Shown piece after piece: positions 6,851 to 61,507 of a stretch of DNA of 64,000 bases. Source of the DNA: Candidatus Peribacteria bacterium. Its GTDB lineage: Bacteria > Patescibacteriota > Gracilibacteria > Peribacterales > Peribacteraceae. Below the pieces are notes generated by a model. The model was not told the DNA's origin. It saw only the letters and a program-made list of their open reading frames with translations, and did not search any database. The translations under genes and the position numbers were made by a program. The DNA lies in assembly GCA_018652265.1 (NCBI GenBank), contig JABICL010000039.1:7287-71286 (forward strand). The letters run 5' to 3'. Numbering within the stretch: the first letter of the stretch is position 1; each line of letters starts with the position of its first letter.

Positions 6851-6966
6851 CCGCTCGCGTGCTTAAGACGGTATATGCGACGAAATCGACGTAACCCATC
6901 ACCGTTTATTACTTATCAGAGGTTTCGGATCGATTTCTTACGCAAAATACCGCCTGCACGCTTGCT
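6851..6966 (-). repeat. Family A long-hairpin repeat, copy A1 (centre type 1)
   Basis: Reverse complement of the consensus GCAAGCGTGCAGGCGGTATTTTGCGTAAGAAATC...GATTTCGTCGCATATACCGCCTTAAGCACGCGAGCGG. Lies between the divergent rpmA and rplK. Confidence 0.9.
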
Positions 6967-8200: not shown

Positions 8201-8297
8201 ATGTCATGCTGAGCCGTACTGAGCGAGTGAGCACTTGAAGCAGAGCGACGAAGTCGCGATGCTTAAGTCTCGCGAGTCGAAGTGCGTGTCGAAGCAT
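8201..8297 (+). repeat. Family B repeat, copy B1
   Basis: ATGTCATGCTGAGCCGTACTGAGCGAGTGAGCACTTGAAGCAGAGCGACGAAGTCGCGATGCTTAAGTCTCGCGAGTCGAAGTGCGTGTCGAAGCAT. A long imperfect palindrome centred on GCGAC-GAA-GTCGC. Fills the gap between convergent stops. Confidence 0.9.
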
Positions 8298-8299
8298 AA

Positions 8300-9451
8300 T
8301 TAAACTAATTTTTCCTTTCTAAGACATTCTCCAGCTTCTTTGTAGAACATAATAAGTGTTCCGAAGCTAATTAGAGATATGGCCATTCCGATTAGAAAAC
8401 CAACTACAGGGATAATTCCTAATCCAAACAATACAAATGTGCCAAGTGTGAATCTTCCAAAAGTCTTAAATTGAGATTCTGTTTTCTTTGGTGGAAATAT
8501 CATTTGCATGAGAATAAATCCAGATAGTGCATTACCTACGTATAGAAGTGTTCCCCAAAGAACAAAAGTAATTATTGCGATAGGAATCGTTATTACTGGC
8601 ATCAGAAGAACCATTCCAACTATAGGCAAGACAATTACAGACACTAGTCCTATGAGGAGCATCTTAGAATAATGCCTCTTAGTAGCGCCTTTTGCTGTTT
8701 TTGAAGGTCGTGATCCATATCTAAGTGCAAATCTATGAGCTAGAGCAATTATAAGTCCTCCAATAATTAATCTAGAAAAGAAAGAGAAAAACTTAAATCC
8801 AGCAAAGAATGCTACGGCTCCTACTTCTTTTTCTGGCAAAGAATGAAATGCTCTATTTATTTCGCCACGTACAACATTTTCAGGAACTACTACATTCATG
8901 TCTTCTGGAATAGACATATGTAAATTCCCATATATTTTTGCATCTTCACTAATTTCTAGAGAGTCATATACATTAACTTTTACATCATCAAAATATGTTC
9001 CATTTAGCACTACATGTTTTCCCATAAATCTAACTGGATCATTGAACTTGCCACTTGCAGTTAAATCTTGTCCTCCAATTATAGATTCACCTTTTATATG
9101 AACATCTGGAGAAAGCATGATGCTTTGGCCAAACATAATCACATCACCAATAACACTATTATTGATAATTATCTTAGATCCTACCGCATGTAAATCATCA
9201 CCTATTTTCCCATTTATAGTTATATTCTCTCCTGCTATAAATACATCTTCACTTATATCTGCATTTATTTGAACAGCTTCTCCTGCAAGAAATGCATCAC
9301 CTCGAATTTCTTTTGCAATCTGCACCAAGCTACCTGCAGCATAGGAATTGCCATCAGGCTCTACTTCTACAACATCACCAACCTGAAAAGATGCTGCGGA
9401 TACTAGAGAAGGGGATAAAAATAAAACTAGAGAAAAAAGAAGTTTATGCAT
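8300..9451 (-). CDS. Secreted/membrane protein with bactofilin-like beta-helix repeats and a C-terminal multi-TM region
   Basis: Start set at MHKLLFSLVLFLSPSLVSAAS (signal peptide). Repeated D(V/A)F(I/L)AGE..(I/T)IN..I.(D)D motifs. Four to five hydrophobic helices at the C-terminus. Confidence 0.45.
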   Translation of the reverse strand: MHKLLFSLVLFLSPSLVSAASFQVGDVVEVEPDGNSYAAGSLVQIAKEIRGDAFLAGEAVQINADISEDVFIAGENITINGKIGDDLHAVGSKIIINNSVIGDVIMFGQSIMLSPDVHIKGESIIGGQDLTASGKFNDPVRFMGKHVVLNGTYFDDVKVNVYDSLEISEDAKIYGNLHMSIPEDMNVVVPENVVRGEINRAFHSLPEKEVGAVAFFAGFKFFSFFSRLIIGGLIIALAHRFALRYGSRPSKTAKGATKRHYSKMLLIGLVSVIVLPIVGMVLLMPVITIPIAIITFVLWGTLLYVGNALSGFILMQMIFPPKKTESQFKTFGRFTLGTFVLFGLGIIPVVGFLIGMAISLISFGTLIMFYKEAGECLRKEKLV

Positions 9452-9523
9452 AATGGATACAATTTTAGTAGATAATTGAAATATAGCCAACCTATGTTTT
9501 TTATAAAGCTCAACTAGATAGTA

Positions 9524-9591
9524 CCCCTTCGTCCGCCTGCGGCGAACTTCGGAACACGCCCGCCTACGCCAAGGCTTCGGTGGGCAGGCAG
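9524..9591. repeat. GC-rich CTTCG-type intergenic element (D-like)
   Basis: CCCCTTCGTCCGCCTGCGGCGAACTTCGGAACACGCCCGCCTACGCCAAGGCTTCGGTGGGCAGGCAG. GCCTGC/GCAGGC form an outer stem. It shares the CTTCGTCC start with D1 and D2. Confidence 0.5.
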
Positions 9592-9609
9592 TATCTTGCG
9601 ACTCAACTG

Positions 9610-9685
9610 TGGTGGCCCAGGTCGGGTTCGAACCGACGACACCTCGCTCTTCAAGCGAGTGCTCTACCAGCTGAGCTACCGGGCC
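9610..9685 (-). tRNA. tRNA-Phe (anticodon GAA), CCA encoded
   Basis: Reverse complement is GGCCCGGTAGCTCAGCTGGTAGAGCACTCGCTTGAAGAGCGAGGTGTCGTCGGTTCGAACCCGACCTGGGCCACCA. Confidence 0.9.
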
Positions 9686-13971: not shown

Positions 13972-14086
13972 CCGCTCACGTGCTTAAGGTGGTATATGCG
14001 ACGAAATCGACGTAACCCATCACCGTTTATTACTTATCAGAGGTTTCGGATCGATTTCTTACGCAAAATACCACCTGCACGCTTGC
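13972..14086 (-). repeat. Family A repeat, copy A2 (centre type 1)
   Basis: Same as A1, but with the paired arm change GGTGGTAT / ATACCACC instead of GGCGGTAT / ATACCGCC. Confidence 0.9.
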
Positions 14087-14176
14087 TGCCCGGCATGTTC
14101 ATGCTGCTTGCCGACCGAAGCATATTGTTCCCAAAAACCGCTATTTCTGGTAAAATAGACAGATTTATACAACTTT

Positions 14177-16387
14177 ATGAACCTAAATAGATTTACTTCC
14201 ATATCGGCAAAGGGAATCGCATCAATCATGTTTATATTGATTGGACTGATGGTGGGAATAAGTATGCCAGCAAATACTGCTATTTCTCCAGCTTATGGAC
14301 AAAGCAGTGAATCATCTGAGTACTATGAAGAAGAGGAATATGATGAGGAAGAGGAATACTCAGAAGAAGAAAGTTACGAAGAAGAATATGATTCATCTGA
14401 AACATCAGAAGAATATTCTGAAGAGGAGGAATATGAGGAAGAATATGATGAGGAAGAGGAATACTCAGAAGAAGAAAGTTACGAAGAAGAATATGATTCA
14501 TCTGAAGAATCTTACGAAGAAGAGTGCTACGATTCAGATGAATACTACGATGACGAGTGCTACGATTCAGATGAATACTACGACGAAGACTCAGACATAA
14601 TTTGTGGAGATGACTATTGTGATTCTATGTCTGGAGAGAGCTGCTCAAACTGTGGACAAGACTGCGGTGCTTGCCCTTCGATTTGTGGAGATGGCGCATG
14701 TAATTCAAACGAAAGCTGTAGTACATGCTCAGCAGATTGCGGCGCTTGCCGCGAACCATGTGGAAACAATGTATGTAATGAACTTTCTGGAGAAAAATGT
14801 AGTAACTGTCCACAGGATTGTGGAGAATGCAAAGATATAGCTCCTCCGACCATAAACATATGTGGAGACAATGTATGTCAGCAAACAGAAACAAAAACTA
14901 GCTGCCCAATTGATTGTGCTCCAGTAGCAACAGTCGCTTGTGGAGATAATGTGTGTACTGGGCAAGAAACATGTGGAAACTGCATGCAAGATTGCGGATT
15001 TTGTACTCCTGCTAGACCAGCTGATCTCACACAAGTAAATACATGTGGAGATAATGTATGTCACATACTTTCAGAAGATTGTAATTCTTGTTCAGAAGAT
15101 TGTGGATCATGCGGTTCATCTCTAGGTAATGTAGGAGGCATTGCTATAAGCGTAAAAGATGCGAGGCAACAAGCAGAGCGCATTGGAAATCTTATGCAGA
15201 TAGATCAAAGCCTTGCAGAAAGAATTAGCGAAAAATATGCAGAACAAATACAGGAGCTAAAAACTAGAGAAGATGATCAAGTGGCACTTAGCACTAAGGA
15301 AAAAAGGCAATTAGTAAAATTGACATCGGAAATAGGAAAGGCAACTAGAGACGAAGCAGATGAAATGAGATTTTTGGTAGCAAAAGGAGTTTTAGATAAT
15401 CCTACAGTATTATCATTACTTTACACTTTGCCAGGAAGAGAGGACCTCATGGCAGCAGCAAATTCAGGAGATATAGAAACTGTTATACGACTTATGCCAG
15501 AGGGAAATGCAGATATTGCAGAAATAAGTAGAAAAATTACTGTGATAGAAGATGGATTCCCTGACATCGTAGAAGAAATAGAAACAAACGAAGAAATATC
15601 TTTGATATTAAAAGCATTTGCATCTCATGTAGGGGAAAGCGAGGAAGAAGATGTAAAAATTAAATTTAAAAGATCTGTATCTCTACTTGGCAAAATGCGT
15701 GCCAAGGCAGCAGATCCAAATGAAAAATTGCCAGATCTAGAAGAAAGGCTTAATTATTTGATAGATAGAAGAAATTCAATATCAGGAATAATTGGTATCG
15801 CAAGTGATAATGTCGAAAATGATTTAGGAAAAGTAAAAGGAGAAGTAAGAGGAACGTTGACATCTGGAAATCCCAACAAAACTGAAAAACTTCTTAATCT
15901 TTCTGGAATATTTGAATACATACGATCTACTGCAAATTTTGAAACTCTGGAAAAAAGATTTACAAATGCCAAAGGAAGCATGAGATCTGGTATGGGTAAA
16001 TTAATTGCAATATTTACATTTGGCGGTGCTCCAGAGGCAGAGGCAGCAGAAATTCTGTCGGAAGAAGGCAATACTGATATGTTGCAAGCAGTCAAAGAAG
16101 ATAATGTTGAAAAACAAAAGGAATCTATAAGATTACTACTTTCTTCTAACATAAAAAATCTGGAGCCAGTTCTTTCAAAAATAAGTGAAGCTGAAAAACA
16201 ATCATTTAATGAAAAGATAGAAGCATGGCAAACAAAACTAGATTCAGCTCAAACACCAAGTGATATGAGTGTTTTACTTGGTGAACTGCAAACATATCTA
16301 GATGAGACAGAAGCTATTGCACGCGAAAAGAATGGGTGTTTCAAAAGAACTATGTACTTTATTCATGATTTCTTCGGGAAAAACTAA
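14177..16387 (+). CDS. Secreted protein: acidic E/Y/S low-complexity region, six CGDxxC...C..C..DCGxC cysteine-rich repeats, long helical C-terminal region
   Basis: 736 aa. N-terminal TM/signal IASIMFILIGLMVGISMPANTA. Repeats such as ICGDDYCDSMSGESCSNCGQDCGAC and ACGDNVCTGQETCGNCMQDCGFC. Confidence 0.7.
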   Translation: MNLNRFTSISAKGIASIMFILIGLMVGISMPANTAISPAYGQSSESSEYYEEEEYDEEEEYSEEESYEEEYDSSETSEEYSEEEEYEEEYDEEEEYSEEESYEEEYDSSEESYEEECYDSDEYYDDECYDSDEYYDEDSDIICGDDYCDSMSGESCSNCGQDCGACPSICGDGACNSNESCSTCSADCGACREPCGNNVCNELSGEKCSNCPQDCGECKDIAPPTINICGDNVCQQTETKTSCPIDCAPVATVACGDNVCTGQETCGNCMQDCGFCTPARPADLTQVNTCGDNVCHILSEDCNSCSEDCGSCGSSLGNVGGIAISVKDARQQAERIGNLMQIDQSLAERISEKYAEQIQELKTREDDQVALSTKEKRQLVKLTSEIGKATRDEADEMRFLVAKGVLDNPTVLSLLYTLPGREDLMAAANSGDIETVIRLMPEGNADIAEISRKITVIEDGFPDIVEEIETNEEISLILKAFASHVGESEEEDVKIKFKRSVSLLGKMRAKAADPNEKLPDLEERLNYLIDRRNSISGIIGIASDNVENDLGKVKGEVRGTLTSGNPNKTEKLLNLSGIFEYIRSTANFETLEKRFTNAKGSMRSGMGKLIAIFTFGGAPEAEAAEILSEEGNTDMLQAVKEDNVEKQKESIRLLLSSNIKNLEPVLSKISEAEKQSFNEKIEAWQTKLDSAQTPSDMSVLLGELQTYLDETEAIAREKNGCFKRTMYFIHDFFGKN
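14336..14590 (+). repeat. In-frame coding tandem repeats
   Basis: A perfect 66-bp repeat at 14336-14401 and 14441-14506 (105-bp period), and a 33-bp tandem pair at 14525-14557 / 14558-14590 (TGCTACGATTCAGATGAATACTACGA...). Confidence 0.9.
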
Positions 16388-22461: not shown

Positions 22462-23334
22462 CTACTCGTGCTTATGAACCCCCCGATCTATCATCTTTTG
22501 AATTTCCTCGATTAGATCAAGTAGCTCCTCAAAATCCTTAAGTCTGTGATGCGGAGACTGCTTTCTCCAAAAATGCACAATTCCATTACAGGTCTCAAGT
22601 AGCTGGTGAAGCTCGGAAACACATTCTTTTTGAGCAATCCAATCTACATGTTTAGATCCAAGCATAGAAATCAATCTATCCACACGATACATAGTTCTAT
22701 GAACACCTTCTTGCAGAAGTTCTTCGCGTTTATCATCTATCGTATAAAGCCTGTTTTTCTCATCATAAAAATCAGGTATACGACGCAAATAACTCTGCGC
22801 TTGTCTGTATGCAGTTGTTAAATCAAACCATTCATCTTCACTTATTGCATGTTTTTCATTTGCCAGAATCATAATTCTATCTAGATCTTTTCTGACTATA
22901 TAAAATCCTTCACGGATATTATGGAACATATCTTCAAATGAAAGCTTATGTATTTGTTTGAGAGCAATGTCTTGCCTGTGTGAAACTAGCTTTGTTACAA
23001 ATACAGCAAATACAAATAACGCAGACATACTCTGAATTGCTGCCAAGAATTTAGAAAAACCATTCGGTGTCACATCACCATATCCTGTAGAAGTTGCAGT
23101 TATCACACTGAAATACAAAGTATTTGCGAGTCTCTGCATCGTATTCATTCCCTCTAGTGCTTCTGGTCCATGTCCAGGTAAATATTCAAGCAAGAAATAT
23201 ACAACACCAAATCCAAGAGCTAATCCTATCCATATGAGAAACAAAGTCTGATAAGAAAGGCTAGTTATGGAATCCATCGCTCGCATAAGGCGACCGTGGT
23301 TCCTTTGCCAGAAATTTTTCATTCCACTAAGCAT
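22462..23334 (-). CDS. Two-TM potassium channel family protein
   Basis: K+ selectivity filter TATSTGYGDVTP between two TM helices. The cytoplasmic C-terminal domain is of unknown type. Confidence 0.7.
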   Translation of the reverse strand: MLSGMKNFWQRNHGRLMRAMDSITSLSYQTLFLIWIGLALGFGVVYFLLEYLPGHGPEALEGMNTMQRLANTLYFSVITATSTGYGDVTPNGFSKFLAAIQSMSALFVFAVFVTKLVSHRQDIALKQIHKLSFEDMFHNIREGFYIVRKDLDRIMILANEKHAISEDEWFDLTTAYRQAQSYLRRIPDFYDEKNRLYTIDDKREELLQEGVHRTMYRVDRLISMLGSKHVDWIAQKECVSELHQLLETCNGIVHFWRKQSPHHRLKDFEELLDLIEEIQKMIDRGVHKHE

Positions 23335-23405
23335 TTCCTACTATTTTACCAGAAATAGCCGTTTTTTGGAATAATATGCTTCGACTCAGCCTGACATACA
23401 GAATA

Positions 23406-23520
23406 GCAAGCGAGCAGGCGGTATTTTGCGTAAGAAATCGATCCGAAACCTCTGATAAGTAATAAACGGTGATGGGTTACGTCGATTTCGTCGCATATAC
23501 CGCCTTAAGCGAGCGAGCGG
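23406..23520 (+). repeat. Family A repeat, copy A3 (centre type 1)
   Basis: GCAAGCGAGCAGGCGGTATTTTGCGTAAGAAATCGATCCGAAACCTCTGATAAGTAATAAACGGTGATGGGTTACGTCGATTTCGTCGCATATACCGCCTTAAGCGAGCGAGCGG. Confidence 0.9.
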
Positions 23521-26280: not shown

Positions 26281-26424
26281 AGTGGTTAGTGACTATGCTT
26301 CGACTCGCACTTCGACTCGTAGAACTTAAGCATCGCGACTTCGTCGCTCCGCTTCAAGTTCAACTCGCTCAGTACGGCTCAGCATGACATATTCATCACA
26401 ACTACCCACTACTCACTAACCACT
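26281..26424 (-). repeat. Family B repeat copy B2 (26295-26390) enclosed by a perfect 12-bp inverted repeat
   Basis: AGTGGTTAGTGA (26281-26292) and TCACTAACCACT (26413-26424) bracket the reverse-oriented B copy ATGCTTCGACTCGCACTTCG...GCTCAGCATGACAT. Confidence 0.85.
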
Positions 26425-33959: not shown

Positions 33960-34346
33960 CTACTCAGATGGTTTTAAGGATGAAGTAATTTTTTGAAAAA
34001 TTAATGTTAGCTCTTGGCATTCTTGCCATAATTTACGAATTTCCTGTTTTTTCTCCGGAACTGCTGCTGCTAGCATACGAAGATGATGTTTTGTCTCTTG
34101 ACATTCTTTCTTTGCAATATGAATCTTATTACGAAAATCTTTTTTGGAACTTGCACCATTTGCCTCCATGTAATTAGCACCAATACTCGTCGCAGAACCA
34201 ACAATCTGATCAATTATACGACGTGTGATTACATCTTTTATAACAGATTTGCATAAATGTATTACATTTTCACCAAAAACTGCCGTTCTCTCCTCCAGAT
34301 CAAACTTTTTATCAGTTTGTGTACTCCTAGAAATCATAGGAAACAA
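33960..34346 (-). CDS. Four-helix-bundle protein (23S rRNA intervening-sequence protein family)
   Basis: 128 aa. GSATSIGANYMEANGASSKKDFRNKIHIAKKECQETKHHLRML is the family signature. Confidence 0.75.
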   Translation of the reverse strand: MFPMISRSTQTDKKFDLEERTAVFGENVIHLCKSVIKDVITRRIIDQIVGSATSIGANYMEANGASSKKDFRNKIHIAKKECQETKHHLRMLAAAVPEKKQEIRKLWQECQELTLIFQKITSSLKPSE

Positions 34347-43028: not shown

Positions 43029-43078
43029 CCCTTCGACTTCGCCGCTCGCAAGGCTCGCAGCTTCGCTCAGGATGACAT
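43029..43078 (-). repeat. B-related short element (CCCTTCGAC...CTCAGGATGACAT type)
   Basis: CCCTTCGACTTCGCCGCTCGCAAGGCTCGCAGCTTCGCTCAGGATGACAT; compare 45824-45869. Confidence 0.7.
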
Positions 43079-43099: not shown

Positions 43100-43189
43100 A
43101 TGTCATGCTGAGCCGTACTGAGCGAACGAGCACTTGAAGCGGAGCTGGCGACGCTTAAGTCTCGTGAGACGAAGTACGTGTCGAAGCAT
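43100..43189 (+). repeat. Family B repeat, copy B3 (7-bp shorter centre)
   Basis: ATGTCATGCTGAGCCGTACTGAGCGAACGAGCACTTGAAGCGGAGCTGGCGACGCTTAAGTCTCGTGAGACGAAGTACGTGTCGAAGCAT. Confidence 0.9.
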
Positions 43190-43193
43190 TAAG

Positions 43194-43212
43194 CCTTAAG
43201 CACGCGAGCGGG
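43194..43212 (+). repeat. Solo right terminus of family A
   Basis: CCTTAAGCACGCGAGCGGGG abuts B3. No left arm is present. Confidence 0.7.
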
Positions 43213-45767: not shown

Positions 45768-45823
45768 GCAAGCGTGCAGGCGGTATTTTGCGTAAGCTTT
45801 AAAGCTTAGCGAGCATGTGAGCG
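45768..45823 (+). repeat. Miniature family A derivative (two termini joined by a short loop)
   Basis: GCAAGCGTGCAGGCGGTATTTTGCGTAAG-CTTTAAAG-CTTAGCGAGCATGTGAGCG. Confidence 0.75.
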
Positions 45824-45869
45824 CCCTTCGACACGGCGATGCTGAAGCATCGCCTGCTCAGGATGACAT
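45824..45869 (-). repeat. B-related short element
   Basis: CCCTTCGACACGGCGATGC-TGAA-GCATCGCCTGCTCAGGATGACAT, with a perfect 8-bp hairpin. Confidence 0.75.
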
Positions 45870-47711: not shown

Positions 47712-48728
47712 ATGTTGAATGTAAATCAAACATCACAATTACTTACGCAAATGGAAAATTCTAAGCGTATTGTGTGTGTTTGTCATGATAATCCAGATGG
47801 AGATGCAATTGGGTCTATGTTAGGCCTTTCATTGATACTAAAGGAAAATTTCAAAGATAAAGAAATAATTTCAGCATGCAAAGACCAAGCTCCTGCATCA
47901 TTTAAATTTATAAAGAGTGTTGAATCTATAAAAAACATAATAAATCCACAAAGCGGAGATCTATTCTTTTTCCTAGACTCTGCAGAACCAAAATTAATTA
48001 GCTTTCATGAAATTCATCCGTATCTATTCTCTCCTGAGACTACAAAAGAAAAAGGGATATCTACCATAAAAGCAGATCACCATCCTTCGGGTTCAGAATT
48101 TGGTCAGATTAATTTTCTAGATCCAGAGGCAGCATCTACATGTGAAATCGTTGTAGATATGATGGATGCAGTTGATTTCAAAATAAATACAGATGCAGCA
48201 ACCGCACTACTAACTGGAATATATACAGATACAGGAAGCATGATGCATAGTAATACTTCCCAGAGAGTATATAGAACATCTGCCAGACTTCTGCGCGCTG
48301 GAGCAGATCAAAAGAAGATAGTAGAAAATGTATACAGAACTACAAAGCCATCCTCTCTAAGATTATGGGGGAAAGTATTAGAAAAAATATCCATAACCCC
48401 AGAAGGAGGAGCTGTATCTGCTGTAACAATGTCTGATTTTAGAAGCACTGGATCTCATTTTTCGGAACTAAATGGAGCAATAGATTATCTAAATTCAATT
48501 CCTGGAATGAAGTTTTCTATGATCCTCTCCGAACGTGATGGAAAGGTAAAAGGATCACTCAGAACACTCAGAGAAGATGTCGATGTCTCTGCTATGGCAC
48601 AAAAATTCTCAGGAGGAGGACATAAAAAGGCTGCAGGATTTTCGCTAGATGGAACACTGGAAGAAGAGCGTAGGTGGAAAGTGGTGCCGGGCGATGCTTC
48701 AACACGCACTTCAACAAACTCAGGATAA
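47712..48728 (+). CDS. DHH/DHHA1 phosphoesterase (NrnA-like), paralog 2
   Basis: 338 aa. HDNPDGDAIGS, DHH and GGGHKKAAGF motifs. The last 11 codons are encoded by a B-like repeat. Confidence 0.8.
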   Translation: MLNVNQTSQLLTQMENSKRIVCVCHDNPDGDAIGSMLGLSLILKENFKDKEIISACKDQAPASFKFIKSVESIKNIINPQSGDLFFFLDSAEPKLISFHEIHPYLFSPETTKEKGISTIKADHHPSGSEFGQINFLDPEAASTCEIVVDMMDAVDFKINTDAATALLTGIYTDTGSMMHSNTSQRVYRTSARLLRAGADQKKIVENVYRTTKPSSLRLWGKVLEKISITPEGGAVSAVTMSDFRSTGSHFSELNGAIDYLNSIPGMKFSMILSERDGKVKGSLRTLREDVDVSAMAQKFSGGGHKKAAGFSLDGTLEEERRWKVVPGDASTRTSTNSG

Positions 48729-48742
48729 CAAAGTATGACATG
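48695..48742 (-). repeat. Degenerate B-like element overlapping the DHH paralog 2 stop
   Basis: ATGCTTCAACACGCACTTCAACAAACTCAGGATAACAAAGTATGACAT; compare ATGCTTCGACACGTACTTCG...CATGACAT. Confidence 0.6.
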
Positions 48743-48749
48743 ACAGGCA

Positions 48750-48855
48750 GCAAGCGTGCAGGCGGTATTTTGCGTAAGAAATCATTCTTGGGTACCAATA
48801 TATTATCAATCCCATGTTGATTTCGTCGCATATACCGCCTTAAGCACGCGAGCGG
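48750..48855 (+). repeat. Family A repeat, copy A5 (centre type 2)
   Basis: GCAAGCGTGCAGGCGGTATTTTGCGTAAGAAATCATTCTTGGGTACCAATATATTATCAATCCCATGTTGATTTCGTCGCATATACCGCCTTAAGCACGCGAGCGG. Confidence 0.9.
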
Positions 48856-52539: not shown

Positions 52540-52683
52540 CGCTCGCGTACGTACGATGGCATTATTGCGACGAAATCAGTGTAACTGAGTCAATTCCATC
52601 TGTATTCGAACTTGTATAGCTACATTTCTTGTTCTGTTGGTTACAATTGATTTCTTACGCAAAATGACCATCAGTACGCTCGC
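52540..52683 (-). repeat. Family A repeat, divergent copy A6
   Basis: CGCTCGCGTACGTACGATGGCATTATTGCGACGAAATCAG...CAATTGATTTCTTACGCAAAATGACCATCAGTACGCTCGC. The arms changed in a paired way (GATGGTCAT / ATGCCATC). Confidence 0.8.
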
Positions 52684-52692
52684 TAAAAATGT

Positions 52693-52725
52693 ATGTCATG
52701 CTTTTGTCATCCTGAGATTGTCGAA
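52693..52725 (+). repeat. Mini B-type element
   Basis: ATGTCATGCTTTTGTCATCCTGAGATTGTCGAA carries the B terminal motifs only. Confidence 0.6.
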
Positions 52726-53445: not shown

Positions 53446-53666
53446 GCAAGCGTGCAGGCGGTATTATCCTGTTCTAGCCATCAAACTTAGCAAGCATGCC
53501 GTTTCATATTGCGTAAGCGATCTTTCAGCAGTCACGTTCCTTATTCGAATAAAACCACAAATTTAACCGTACCAGATAAAGTTGAGCTGCGTTGATCGCG
53601 ACGCAATATGAAACATTCAGCATGCGAGCGGACCTTATTCAGAATAAAAATTAAGCACGCGAGCAG
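53446..53666 (+). repeat. Composite family A locus: A-type termini bracketing a complete divergent A copy (53490-53631)
   Basis: Outer termini are GCAAGCGTGCAGGCGGTATTA and TTAAGCACGCGAGC. The inner copy is GCAAGCATGCCGTTTCATATTGCGTAAGCGATC...GATCGCGACGCAATATGAAACATTCAGCATGCGAGCGG, with perfectly complementary new arms. Confidence 0.75.
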
Positions 53667-58932: not shown

Positions 58933-59038
58933 GCAAGCGTGCAGGTGGTATTTTGCGTAAGAAATCATTCTTGGGTACCAATATATGATCAATCCCATGT
59001 TGATTTCATCGCATATACCACCTTAAGCACGCGAGCGG
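58933..59038 (+). repeat. Family A repeat, copy A8 (centre type 2; paired GGTGGTAT/ATACCACC variant)
   Basis: GCAAGCGTGCAGGTGGTATTTTGCGTAAGAAATCATTCTTGGGTACCAATATATGATCAATCCCATGTTGATTTCATCGCATATACCACCTTAAGCACGCGAGCGG. It overlaps the last 5 codons and the stop of 59023..59862. Confidence 0.9.
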
Positions 59039-59862
59039 GGCGCATCGTACTCTCCTTTAAGCACCAAAGTATCTTCTTCCAAACTAGGTGATTCACAAAT
59101 CAGCACTCCTCCTATATTTCTATCTTTAAGTACACCCACAAATTCTTTCCAGTTCGCATCACTTTCCTCAAACACAAGATGCTTTCTTTCTCCCTTTTCA
59201 CCATATTCAATGCCAGAATAATGCATATGCATATTAGACAAAGATTCCTCGCCTAAATATTTGGCATAAGTATCAAATAGCTGATTCCATTCTTCTTTTG
59301 AATTCCACATACCTTTGTATCTTGCGTGGATGTGAGCGAAATCAACACAAGGATACATATCAAATTCTTTGCCAAGTTCTAGAAGCTCTTCTAGAGTTCC
59401 AAACTGCGTTCCTTTTCCCATTGTTTCATATGCCAGATTCACATCTGGAAAATATTTATCTTTCTTATCTAGAATATCTTCAGTAGCATTTCTTACATTC
59501 TCGTACACATCAGTAGGATCCATGCCCAAGTAAAACGCTGAGTGAACACATACAGACTTAGCCCCACATATCTGCGCCATTGTGAGAGCTTGAAGTATTC
59601 GCTGCTTACTTTTTTCTAATTTCTCTTCTTCTTTTGCATTTAAGTTAACATAATACGGAGCATGAACAGTTAAAACTATATCTAGTTCCCGAGCTTTCCT
59701 TCCAACTTCTTCAATATGTTCAGTGTTCAGTGGAACTCTCTGTACCCATTCAAGTTCCATAGCATTTATTCCAAGCTCATGTGCTCTTTCAAGTCCTTTC
59801 AAAGTTCCACTAGGAGAAGGGGTTGAATGTGGCGAGCCTGCAACAGCAATACGTAGTGACAT
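59023..59862 (-). CDS. nfo: Endonuclease IV-like (AP endonuclease family 2 / xylose-isomerase-like TIM barrel)
   Basis: 279 aa. The pattern VHAPYYVNL ... VHSAF ... YETMGKG ... CVDFAHIHARY ... HMHYSG ... LICES is collinear with the Nfo metal ligands. Confidence 0.65.
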   Translation of the reverse strand: MSLRIAVAGSPHSTPSPSGTLKGLERAHELGINAMELEWVQRVPLNTEHIEEVGRKARELDIVLTVHAPYYVNLNAKEEEKLEKSKQRILQALTMAQICGAKSVCVHSAFYLGMDPTDVYENVRNATEDILDKKDKYFPDVNLAYETMGKGTQFGTLEELLELGKEFDMYPCVDFAHIHARYKGMWNSKEEWNQLFDTYAKYLGEESLSNMHMHYSGIEYGEKGERKHLVFEESDANWKEFVGVLKDRNIGGVLICESPSLEEDTLVLKGEYDAPRSRA

Positions 59863-59901: not shown

Positions 59902-60007
59902 GCAAGCGTGCAGGCGGTATTTTGCGTAAGAAATCATTCTTGGGTACCAATATATGATCAATCCCATGTTGATTTCGTCGCATATACCGCCTTAAGCACG
60001 CGAGCGG
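59902..60007 (+). repeat. Family A repeat, copy A9 (centre type 2)
   Basis: Nearly identical to A8, in the same orientation, on the other side of the nfo-like gene. Confidence 0.9.
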
Positions 60008-61411: not shown

Positions 61412-61507
61412 ATGCTTCGACACGTACTTCGCCTTACAGAACTTAAGCATCGCGACTTCGTCGCTCTGCTTCAAGTTCAGCTCGCTCAGTACGGCTCAGC
61501 ATGACAT
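61412..61507 (-). repeat. Family B repeat, copy B4
   Basis: ATGCTTCGACACGTACTTCGCCTTACAGAACTTAAGCATCGCGACTTCGTCGCTCTGCTTCAAGTTCAGCTCGCTCAGTACGGCTCAGCATGACAT. It starts 3 nt after the cca stop. Confidence 0.9.

Follow-up and report, generated by a model that had tools for sequence, protein, structure and literature searches.

Family A in the window and in a sister species

The window analysed here is the whole 64,000-nucleotide stretch of contig JABICL010000039.1, which belongs to a Peregrinibacteria/Peribacteria bacterium of the candidate phyla radiation (CPR). It has 38% G+C and carries ordinary bacterial housekeeping genes, which include metG, a murC-like gene, rplK, pth, ruvB, the gene of a PBP2-type transpeptidase, purL, grpE and clpB, as well as ruvX, priA, dnaK, gap and cca. 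Homologues of the AP endonuclease encoded here come from Candidatus Peribacteria, Peribacteraceae or Peregrinibacteria. Interspersed with these genes is a repeat, named family A, the unit of which is a single long interrupted hairpin (an imperfect palindrome) of 106-145 nt. The window contains seven full copies, one nested composite, one miniature and one solo end, which amount to 1104 bp, or 1.73% of the window, at a density of about one copy per 6 kb. CPR/Patescibacteria genomes are ~1 Mb long and compact, and they are generally portrayed as having few repeats and little mobile DNA; in such a host, a structured element that makes up 1.7% of the sequence is therefore unexpected.

The readable sequence comprises ~64 kb of the window genome and roughly 250 kb of a sister genome; it gave a collection of 49 unique copies with flanks and is also the scope of the search for a mobilising enzyme described below. 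Several assemblies, including GCA_018655505.1 and GCA_018649385.1, have identical proteins, contigs 99.98-100% identical to the window and the same copies. When metagenome contigs were scanned for a 21-mer from the left arm, 37 loci were found, all in one set of Joint Genome Institute (JGI) contigs and in one population cluster only. Where these loci overlap the window the nucleotide identity is 75-86% (95% in dnaK), and hence we treat the set as a sister species, “J”, which has about 40 further copies. In a scan of 185,579 species representatives there were 37 single matches in unrelated taxa against a chance expectation of 34.7, with no real copy among them, and the three matches in viral contigs are at chance level only. 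No copy is present in L088, a syntenic relative with 68% protein identity; where the window carries a copy of 144 nt, the ruvX and clpB genes of L088 overlap. From these scans and this copy-free relative, family A appears to be restricted to one genus, for which its repeats are specific markers. Read on its bottom strand, the element is an open reading frame (ORF); a search of 5.8 billion proteins with the encoded peptide returned one called ORF only, at a J-like pth site.

The family was delimited with an nhmmer profile built from seven copies. This profile recovers all the full, miniature and composite loci of the window, and the solo end is recovered by separate arm profiles. A core 14-mer with at most three mismatches has 10 matches in the window against 1.96 expected, a number that none of 100 shuffles reaches. 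The matches of this 14-mer at 9587 and 42139, the latter inside purL, lie outside the family and are likely due to chance.

Maintained pairing of the two arms

In the common form, A1, the unit reads GCAAGCGTGCAGGCGGTATTTTGCGTAAGAAATC, centre, GATTTCGTCGCATATACCGCCTTAAGCACGCGAGCGG, and two main centre types give total lengths of 106 and 115 nt. The two centre types reported in an earlier note on this DNA are real. The arms pair in four helices with conserved bulges and internal loops between them; the stem has ~28 interrupted bp, and the centre spans 33-42 nt in the common types and more in diverged copies. A second subfamily, A2, has seven copies. Its arm sequences differ from those of A1 yet are fully complementary (GTTTCATATTGCR with YGCAATATGAAAC, GCGATC with GATCGC), and its ends still read GCAAGC...GCGAGCGG. 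The duplex of a copy's own arms has an energy of -40.5 kcal/mol in A1 and -40.1 kcal/mol in A2, compared with -14 to -20 kcal/mol for A1xA2 cross pairs. Copies fold with z of -3 to -7 on either strand.

The alignment of 40 distinct arm pairs has 94.9% of the stem cells paired, in comparison with 22-44% when the partners are slid by one to three columns. Both sides are changed in 13 of 28 pairs, where shuffles give 5.4±1.5 and none of 500 reaches 13; the copies are mutually related, so these counts are of non-independent events. The paired changes listed in the earlier note are present, namely GGTGG/CCACC at 13972 and 58933, GATGGTCAT/ATGCCATC at 52540 and GTTTCATATTGCG/CGCAATATGAAAC at 53490, and the pairing of the arms is statistically supported. 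Compensated divergence is nevertheless clear in the A2 subfamily and in the 52540 variant. Variable sites are fewer in the arms (11/73 and 16/73) than in the centres (12/33 and 22/42). The states of the outer box, helix 2, helix 4 and the centre are found in nearly all combinations, which indicates exchange among copies.

The outer box departs from complementarity in one variant. In 14 of 43 A1 copies it reads GCGAGC on both arms, which results in tandem G·A mismatches, for example between 23411-23416 and 23507-23512; the change is parallel, not complementary. AAGCGAGC is present at the left end and again, as a direct repeat, at the right end. A protein that recognises one and the same motif on either side, or the copying of one end onto the other, may be behind this variant.

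Asymmetry of strands and ends

The hairpin is not equivalent on the two strands. Among the 1204 stem cells of the 43 A1 copies, 1152 are Watson-Crick pairs, 21 are top-strand G·T pairs (8 distinct states) and only one is an A·C, the counterpart of a bottom-strand G·T; the GCGAGC outer-box variant with its tandem G·A accounts for 28 more. The top strand is also the more stable in folding: RNA parameters favour it in 39 of 48 copies and DNA parameters in 45 of 48. Selection for folding of the top strand or a C-to-T bias on it could each produce the G·T pattern, and both readings point to a top strand that spends time unpaired from its complement.

The ends are asymmetric as well. The left boundary, including the invariant first G of the element, reads GTAG in 29 of 49 copies (59%), NTAG in 40/49 and NNAG in 49/49; by position, the left flank has A at -1 in 100% of the copies, T at -2 in 82% and G at -3 in 73%. 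An A-rich tract precedes this left tag. On the right there is only a weak NGTGC, and the inverted tag CTAC occurs in 2/49 copies. Folded alone, the arms give z of 0.19, 0.19, 0.37 and -1.12, thus there is no structure in either arm by itself. Since neither arm is structured alone and the tag is one-sided, the unit is a single tagged long hairpin and not a pair of small palindromes. The label REPIN (a doublet of repetitive extragenic palindromes, REPs, forming a hairpin) given in the earlier note therefore does not apply in the strict sense, as the arms taken singly are not palindromic REPs (z +0.4 to -1.1) and only one side has the tag.

No target-site duplication accompanies the copies, because their own flanks score the same as mismatched controls: the local-alignment score for direct repeats is 11.9 for own flanks and 11.7 for flanks of different copies. 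This removes the other label of the earlier note, that of a MITE (a miniature transposable element with inverted repeats) in the usual sense. There is no systematic outer inverted repeat either (own-flank inverted score 12.2, control 11.7). Two candidates near the ends were dropped: an extended outer inverted repeat or 9-bp duplication near 59902 is not systematic over all copies, and a duplicated TA target, with the element ending ...GCGGNGTGC, has the right-hand TA in only ~55-60% of copies. Some copies are flanked by the halves of a palindrome.

Loci of the window

All ten loci claimed in the earlier note are found by the profile searches, three of them with corrections. The copy at 23406-23520 (+) is a full A1 copy of 115 nt with the outer box of ‘A-type’ (GCGAGC in both arms). 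It begins 4 nt past the stop codon of pth, is antisense to this gene and folds as RNA with -45.4 kcal/mol (z -3.7). Two further A1 copies of 115 nt lie in divergent gaps. One of them, with the centre type GATCCGAAACC..., is at 6851-6965 (-) between the L27 and L11 genes (nhmmer E=1.7e-36); it had been placed at 6851-6966, and the extra 5' A belongs to the flank tag. The other is at 13972-14086 (-) and has the GGTGG/CCACC arm variant (E=6e-36).

The A1 copies of 106 nt are three. The copy at 48750-48855 (+), with the centre type ATTCTTGGGTACC..., is in sense orientation in a tandem gap (E=2.7e-31) and folds with -49.2 kcal/mol (z -5.9). That at 59902-60007 (+) is located in a divergent gap. The copy at 58933-59038 (+) is not confined to a gap, as it runs into the 3' end of the AP-endonuclease gene (59023-59862, -), for which it provides the last five codons and stop. 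The protein ends with ...EYDAPRSRA*, where PRSRA and the stop, at the gene end 59023-59040, are encoded by the copy, and has 279 aa compared with ~274 aa in homologues. In species J, where the copy is flipped, the native ...KQEYKR* end with its own stop is kept.

The seventh full copy, at 52540-52683 (-), is diverged and 144 nt long, with the compensated arms GATGGTCAT/ATGCCATC (E=3.6e-22). It lies in a convergent gap, its first base is 2 nt past the clpB stop, and it folds with z -4.1. The locus 53446-53666 (+), previously called composite, is one indeed, and its identity can be refined: an outer shell of A1 arms surrounds a diverged A2 copy at 53490-53631 (+; GCAAGCATGCCGTTTCATATTGCG ... CGCAATATGAAACATTCAGCATGCGAGCGG), the arms of which are fully complementary to each other and not to the A1 arms. 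The same layout is seen again at five or more sites in species J. The miniature at 45768-45823 (+) consists of an A1 left arm, a linker and GCGAGCATGTGAGCG; it looks like an A2 copy with the interior deleted between terminal direct repeats, and it folds no better than shuffles (z 0.06). Finally, a solo right end (CCTTAAGCACGCGAGCGG) is found at 43191-43212 (+) with the right-arm profile (E=1.2e-4).

Turnover of sites

Rearranged copies occur in the collection. A shell that consists of an A1 left arm, AAAYAAAAAGGTA and a right-end module of diverged sequence encloses six of the A2 copies; behind several A1 copies there is an additional right-end module; and solo ends are detected with the arm profiles. 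Deletions between short direct repeats could account for both miniatures. A 60-bp unit, composed of a diverged A1 left arm, AACAAATAAAAAA and the tail of a second repeat, family B (see below), is arranged in tandem before a full copy in L058 (1589-1742) and L080 (825-1038). This array has three left arms in one sample and four in another, which is a copy-number polymorphism.

Six sites of the window can be compared with species J. Site 59902 is filled in the window and empty in J (L079), with spacers of 194 nt and 21 nt, respectively. At 43191-43212 the window has the solo end and J a full copy (L078, 638-752). At 6851 and 58933 both species have a copy, in opposite orientations; the flipped unit comprises the copy, a left module of ~20-26 nt and a short right tail, and lies between conserved boundaries. 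At 13972 and 23406 the orientation is the same. The 13972 copy is 95.7% identical to its orthologue in L086, with two of the five differences forming one compensatory pair, and the 23406 copy is ~92% identical to its own (L086), with two compensatory pairs and a three-base switch of the outer box; at both sites such coordinated sets make up most of the differences.

Across the copies there are no fixed differences between the window and J. The identity of copies is 94.2-94.3% between the window and J and 93.2% within J, while the genomes are 75-86% identical. Hence, because copies are shared without fixed differences and sites differ between the species, family A predates the species split and has not diverged with the genomes, and individual sites turn over. 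Contigs of one sample break inside family A copies (L087, 8502-8651; L049, 1-52). L087 was considered as a strain-level polymorphism at 58933 and dropped: it is otherwise 99.8% identical to the window, and its last 150 nt (8502-8651) are identical to species J, so that the contig either ends in a chimera made during assembly or is a recombinant of the two species at the repeat. Family A repeats thus break metagenome assemblies, with two contigs ending in copies and one contig end chimeric between species.

Gene context and neighbouring repeats

Copies occur in divergent (16), tandem (22) and convergent (5) gaps, which bears out the mixed placement described earlier. Transcription that enters an element in a tandem gap runs antisense to it in 15 cases and sense in 7. 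In 34 of 47 cases the left end points to the start of a gene that is read away from it. Copies adjoin the stop codons of pth, clpB and priA at 1-4 nt. A transcript of the bottom strand would carry the hairpin followed by UACUUUU, which derives from the A-rich left flank. The strength of the A-tract is independent of the gene context and is the same where no gene reads in (4.8 against 4.4 A's; p=0.42). A generic scan for promoters and terminators is uninformative, as it is blind to loops this long.

Beside family A the window has a second abundant repeat, family B, of ~95 nt (ATGCTTCGACACGYACTTCG...CTTAAGCATCGCGACTTCGTCGCTCAAGTTCARCTCGCTCAGTACGGCTCAGCATGACAT), with loci at 8201-8297 (-), 26295-26390 (+), 43100-43189 (-) and 61412-61507 (+) and short forms at 23376-23397, 48694-48741, 52693-52714, 43068-43078 and 45859-45869. 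The tail of family B (..GCATGACATNNNGGGTA) often abuts the left end of family A, and its head (TGCTTCGAC) often comes after the right end of family A. A promoter-like motif, ATTGTTCCCAAAAACCGCTATTTCTGGTAAAATAG, with an extended -10 (TGgTAAAAT), is found at 14119-14158 (+) and 23341-23380 (-), and also in L086. In the window it is located upstream of the gene of a 736-aa protein at 14177 and of an ion-channel gene at 23334; in both cases the gene lies on one side of the motif, and a remnant of family B plus a copy of family A on the other. Its conservation between the species is high. At 9520-9600, by tRNA-Phe (9610-9685), there is a GC-rich stretch, ccttcgtccgcctgcggcgaacttcgg...ggtgggcaggcagtatcttgcg, which resembles the GC-rich interior of some family B copies of J, such as that in the left flank of L078. 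Next to the gene of a type II/IV secretion ATPase, at 33960-34346 (-), is one that encodes a 23S rRNA intervening-sequence protein (PF05635).

Possible mechanism and alternatives

We tentatively suggest, with a little less than even confidence, that family A is a lineage-specific, non-coding and non-autonomous repeat of the REP/REPIN kind, handled as single-stranded top strand by an HUH tyrosine enzyme. We infer the single-stranded DNA intermediate and the type of the enzyme. The top strand, once single-stranded, for example during replication, would fold into the long bulged hairpin. The hairpin would be recognised by its shape and tag by an HUH tyrosine (Y1) enzyme acting in trans, of the kind of RAYT (REP-associated tyrosine transposase), of the enzymes associated with terminal inverted repeats (TIRs) or of those of the insertion sequence (IS) IS200. 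Such an enzyme would be encoded elsewhere in the genome and would cut and rejoin the element without duplicating the target. Copies may have been kept uniform since the split by constraint on the recognised structure together with exchange or replacement among copies, and single sites may occasionally be gained, lost, truncated or flipped. This scheme fits better than a MITE of a DDE transposase or an RNA gene because there is no target duplication, the AG tag is one-sided and the shape of the bulged hairpin, not its sequence, is conserved between the subfamilies, and also because the mismatches are specific to the top strand, clusters, solo units and nesting occur and the family persists across species. 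The general idea of the earlier note, an abundant hairpin element with paired arms, is supported; its mobilisation in trans holds only if the element moves at all.

Several observations weigh against this reading. The statement that the window has no transposase holds for all the ORFs scanned, 20 of them and then the remaining ORFs of 100-620 aa, with neither a Y1 nor any other transposase, and Pfam scans of the 85 genes nearest to all copies reveal no transposase or recombinase; with ~64 kb of this genome and roughly 250 kb of the sister genome covered, a single-copy gene may lie elsewhere. No ORF bracketed by a left and right arm pair (arm profiles) and no multi-copy segment longer than 250 bp is present in ~300 kb. 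Genes bracketed by two copies resemble ordinary housekeeping genes in their N-terminal sequences, and most were also Pfam-scanned. The single match in a screen of 834 ORFs for HUH and Tyr motifs is a UDP-glucose dehydrogenase and is false. For the mobility proposed earlier there is only indirect evidence, namely sites that differ between the two sister species; within the window's own population, where all assemblies are 99.98-100% identical, no polymorphism is seen. The G·T excess comprises about 9 distinct states among related copies, and a top-strand C-to-T mutation bias could explain it. Simple pairing gives no account of the parallel GCGAGC outer box. Finally, family A has the exact GTAG in 59% of copies versus >90% in published GTAG REP families, is 3-4 times longer than any described REP with no unit of 20-40 nt, and, unlike REPINs, has arms that are not palindromes alone and a one-sided tag.

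A structured RNA or transcript element serving the host, be it a terminator, an insulator between genes or a 3' stabiliser, with mobility incidental or extinct, seems unlikely to us. It would agree with a conservation between species equal to that within species, with compensatory changes and G·U-compatible intermediates, with the many copies that abut stop codons, with the left end facing downstream gene starts and the hairpin-UACUUUU order on the bottom strand, and with the RNA-level effects known for REPs (PMC3733652). Against this reading, 16 copies lie between divergent genes, where there is no read-through and the A-tract is equally strong. Incoming tandem transcripts carry mostly the bottom strand (15 vs 7), yet better folding and a tolerance limited to G·T are features of the top strand. 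There is no evident promoter for a top-strand RNA; only tRNAs match Rfam in the window at gathering thresholds, and at E<=10 nothing relevant falls on the copies 23406 and 52540 or the composite 53446. The nesting of copies, the solo ends, the arms arrayed in tandem and the flips in place are how a DNA element behaves. The structured-RNA alternative of the earlier note is thus weakened, as orientations are mixed, tandem copies are mostly antisense and no Rfam family matches. We regard as distinctly improbable a host-maintained structured DNA module of a reduced-genome CPR symbiont, sitting on fixed promoter-adjacent landing pads, kept identical in both species by selection and flipped or replaced in place by a mechanism new to REP-like elements, possibly with family B and the promoter motif as a modular system. 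If no HUH enzyme is found, the conservation would point to a host function of the hairpin.

Movement as double-stranded DNA is very unlikely in the form of a classical MITE, that is, a deletion derivative of an IS moved by its DDE transposase acting on two terminal inverted repeats. Inverted arms of ~35 bp, variable and swappable centres, nesting and intergenic location all resemble such elements. The copies lack a target-site duplication, however, with the TA at -2/-1 inconsistent on the right; their ends are asymmetric with the tag on one side, the mismatch spectrum is strand-specific, and no IS with family A ends occurs in ~300 kb. In addition, A2 keeps the pairing and not the arm sequence, which one sequence-specific double-strand binder would not tolerate. 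The in-place flips could be due to a different enzyme, namely a site-specific or RNA-guided recombinase (IS110-like or an invertase), for which the units would be substrates flipped or replaced on fixed landing pads. At two of five shared sites the orientation of the entire unit, made up of the left module, the copy and a short right tail, is reversed inside boundaries that are conserved. Orthologues with the same orientation differ in whole sets of variants, as though replacement had taken place; the target is not duplicated, and some copies sit at the centre of a palindrome. Against it, no recombinase is found near any copy, flips are seen only between species and never within a population, and they are restricted to copies with an AAATYCCAAG-type left module. 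Recombination between flanking inverted modules could therefore explain the flips without a dedicated enzyme, and we consider such a recombinase highly improbable.

Family A has no species-specific divergence although the genomes differ by ~20%, and the end of at least one gene is altered by it. Were a single-copy HUH enzyme found for it, the long-term association of the REPIN-RAYT type would extend to a distant bacterial branch, with an unusual one-piece hairpin as the substrate.

Comparison with known systems

The MITEs of the Correia/NEMIS, ERIC, BOX and RUP groups are ~100-150 bp long, have long hairpin potential and modular or mosaic centres, lie next to genes and occasionally form coding ends. 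Size, hairpin potential, modular centres, gene-adjacent location and an occasional part in coding ends are common to family A. Correia elements duplicate TA and have symmetrical TIRs, whereas family A has no duplication and asymmetric ends, and it has no sequence similarity to any of these elements. Palindrome-associated elements derived from IS200/IS605 behave in a strand-specific way, and their single-stranded hairpins are recognised. Family A shares with them the lack of target duplication and the conserved short sequence 5' of the left end. However, the ends of family A pair with each other and neither folds alone, while IS200/IS605 elements have separate subterminal hairpins on the same strand.

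In species without REPs, genes similar to RAYT are flanked by long TIRs able to form repeat families, which are thought to be spread by the Y1 enzyme (TIRYT) whose gene they flank (Di Nocera et al. 2013, PMC3733652). These TIRs resemble family A in being moderately abundant inverted-repeat families that are not REPs (PMC3733652). The published TIRs share GGGGWSAS or are mutually unrelated, and none is like the GCAAGCGTGCAGGCGGTAT of family A. The class is defined by the link to a TIRYT gene, and family A is compared with it by the repeats alone.

GTAG REPs are defined by an unpaired GTAG at one end in >90% of members and by a stem-loop of 20-40 nt, with a stem of 5-13 bp and a loop of 2-20 nt; they form dimers able to fold as one large stem-loop, and some lie inside palindromes (PMC3733652). 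The RAYT of E. coli (TnpA-REP) binds single-stranded REP and not its complement, and requires GTAG and the bulge in the stem for cleavage (PMC8266576). According to three papers (PMC3733652, PMC8266576, PMC3116915), these REPs and REPINs are, like family A, extragenic, present in high copy number and provided with an unpaired 5' tag ending in AG by a bulged stem. Both can form a hairpin of ~100 nt with a spacer of 20-100 nt, and both lack target duplication. Complementary stem changes, clusters, solo units, tandem arrays, persistence across related species and occasional insertion inside palindromes or at gene ends are also common to the two. The interrupted stem of family A, ~28 bp, is longer than the 5-13 bp of REPs, and no RAYT is found by its copies (85 neighbour genes, the window and the motif screen of 834 ORFs). 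In the literature searched, REP, REPIN or RAYT is not connected with CPR bacteria in any paper. The paper that describes complete genomes of Peribacteria reports a single region of direct repeats in each, as well as short repeats by the replication origin, and mentions no interspersed family. As in REPINs, the whole unit of family A is one long hairpin of ~100 nt. On the features tested, family A falls outside the strict definitions of REP, REPIN, MITE and IS200/IS605; it acts like a REP-type element without being filed as a member.

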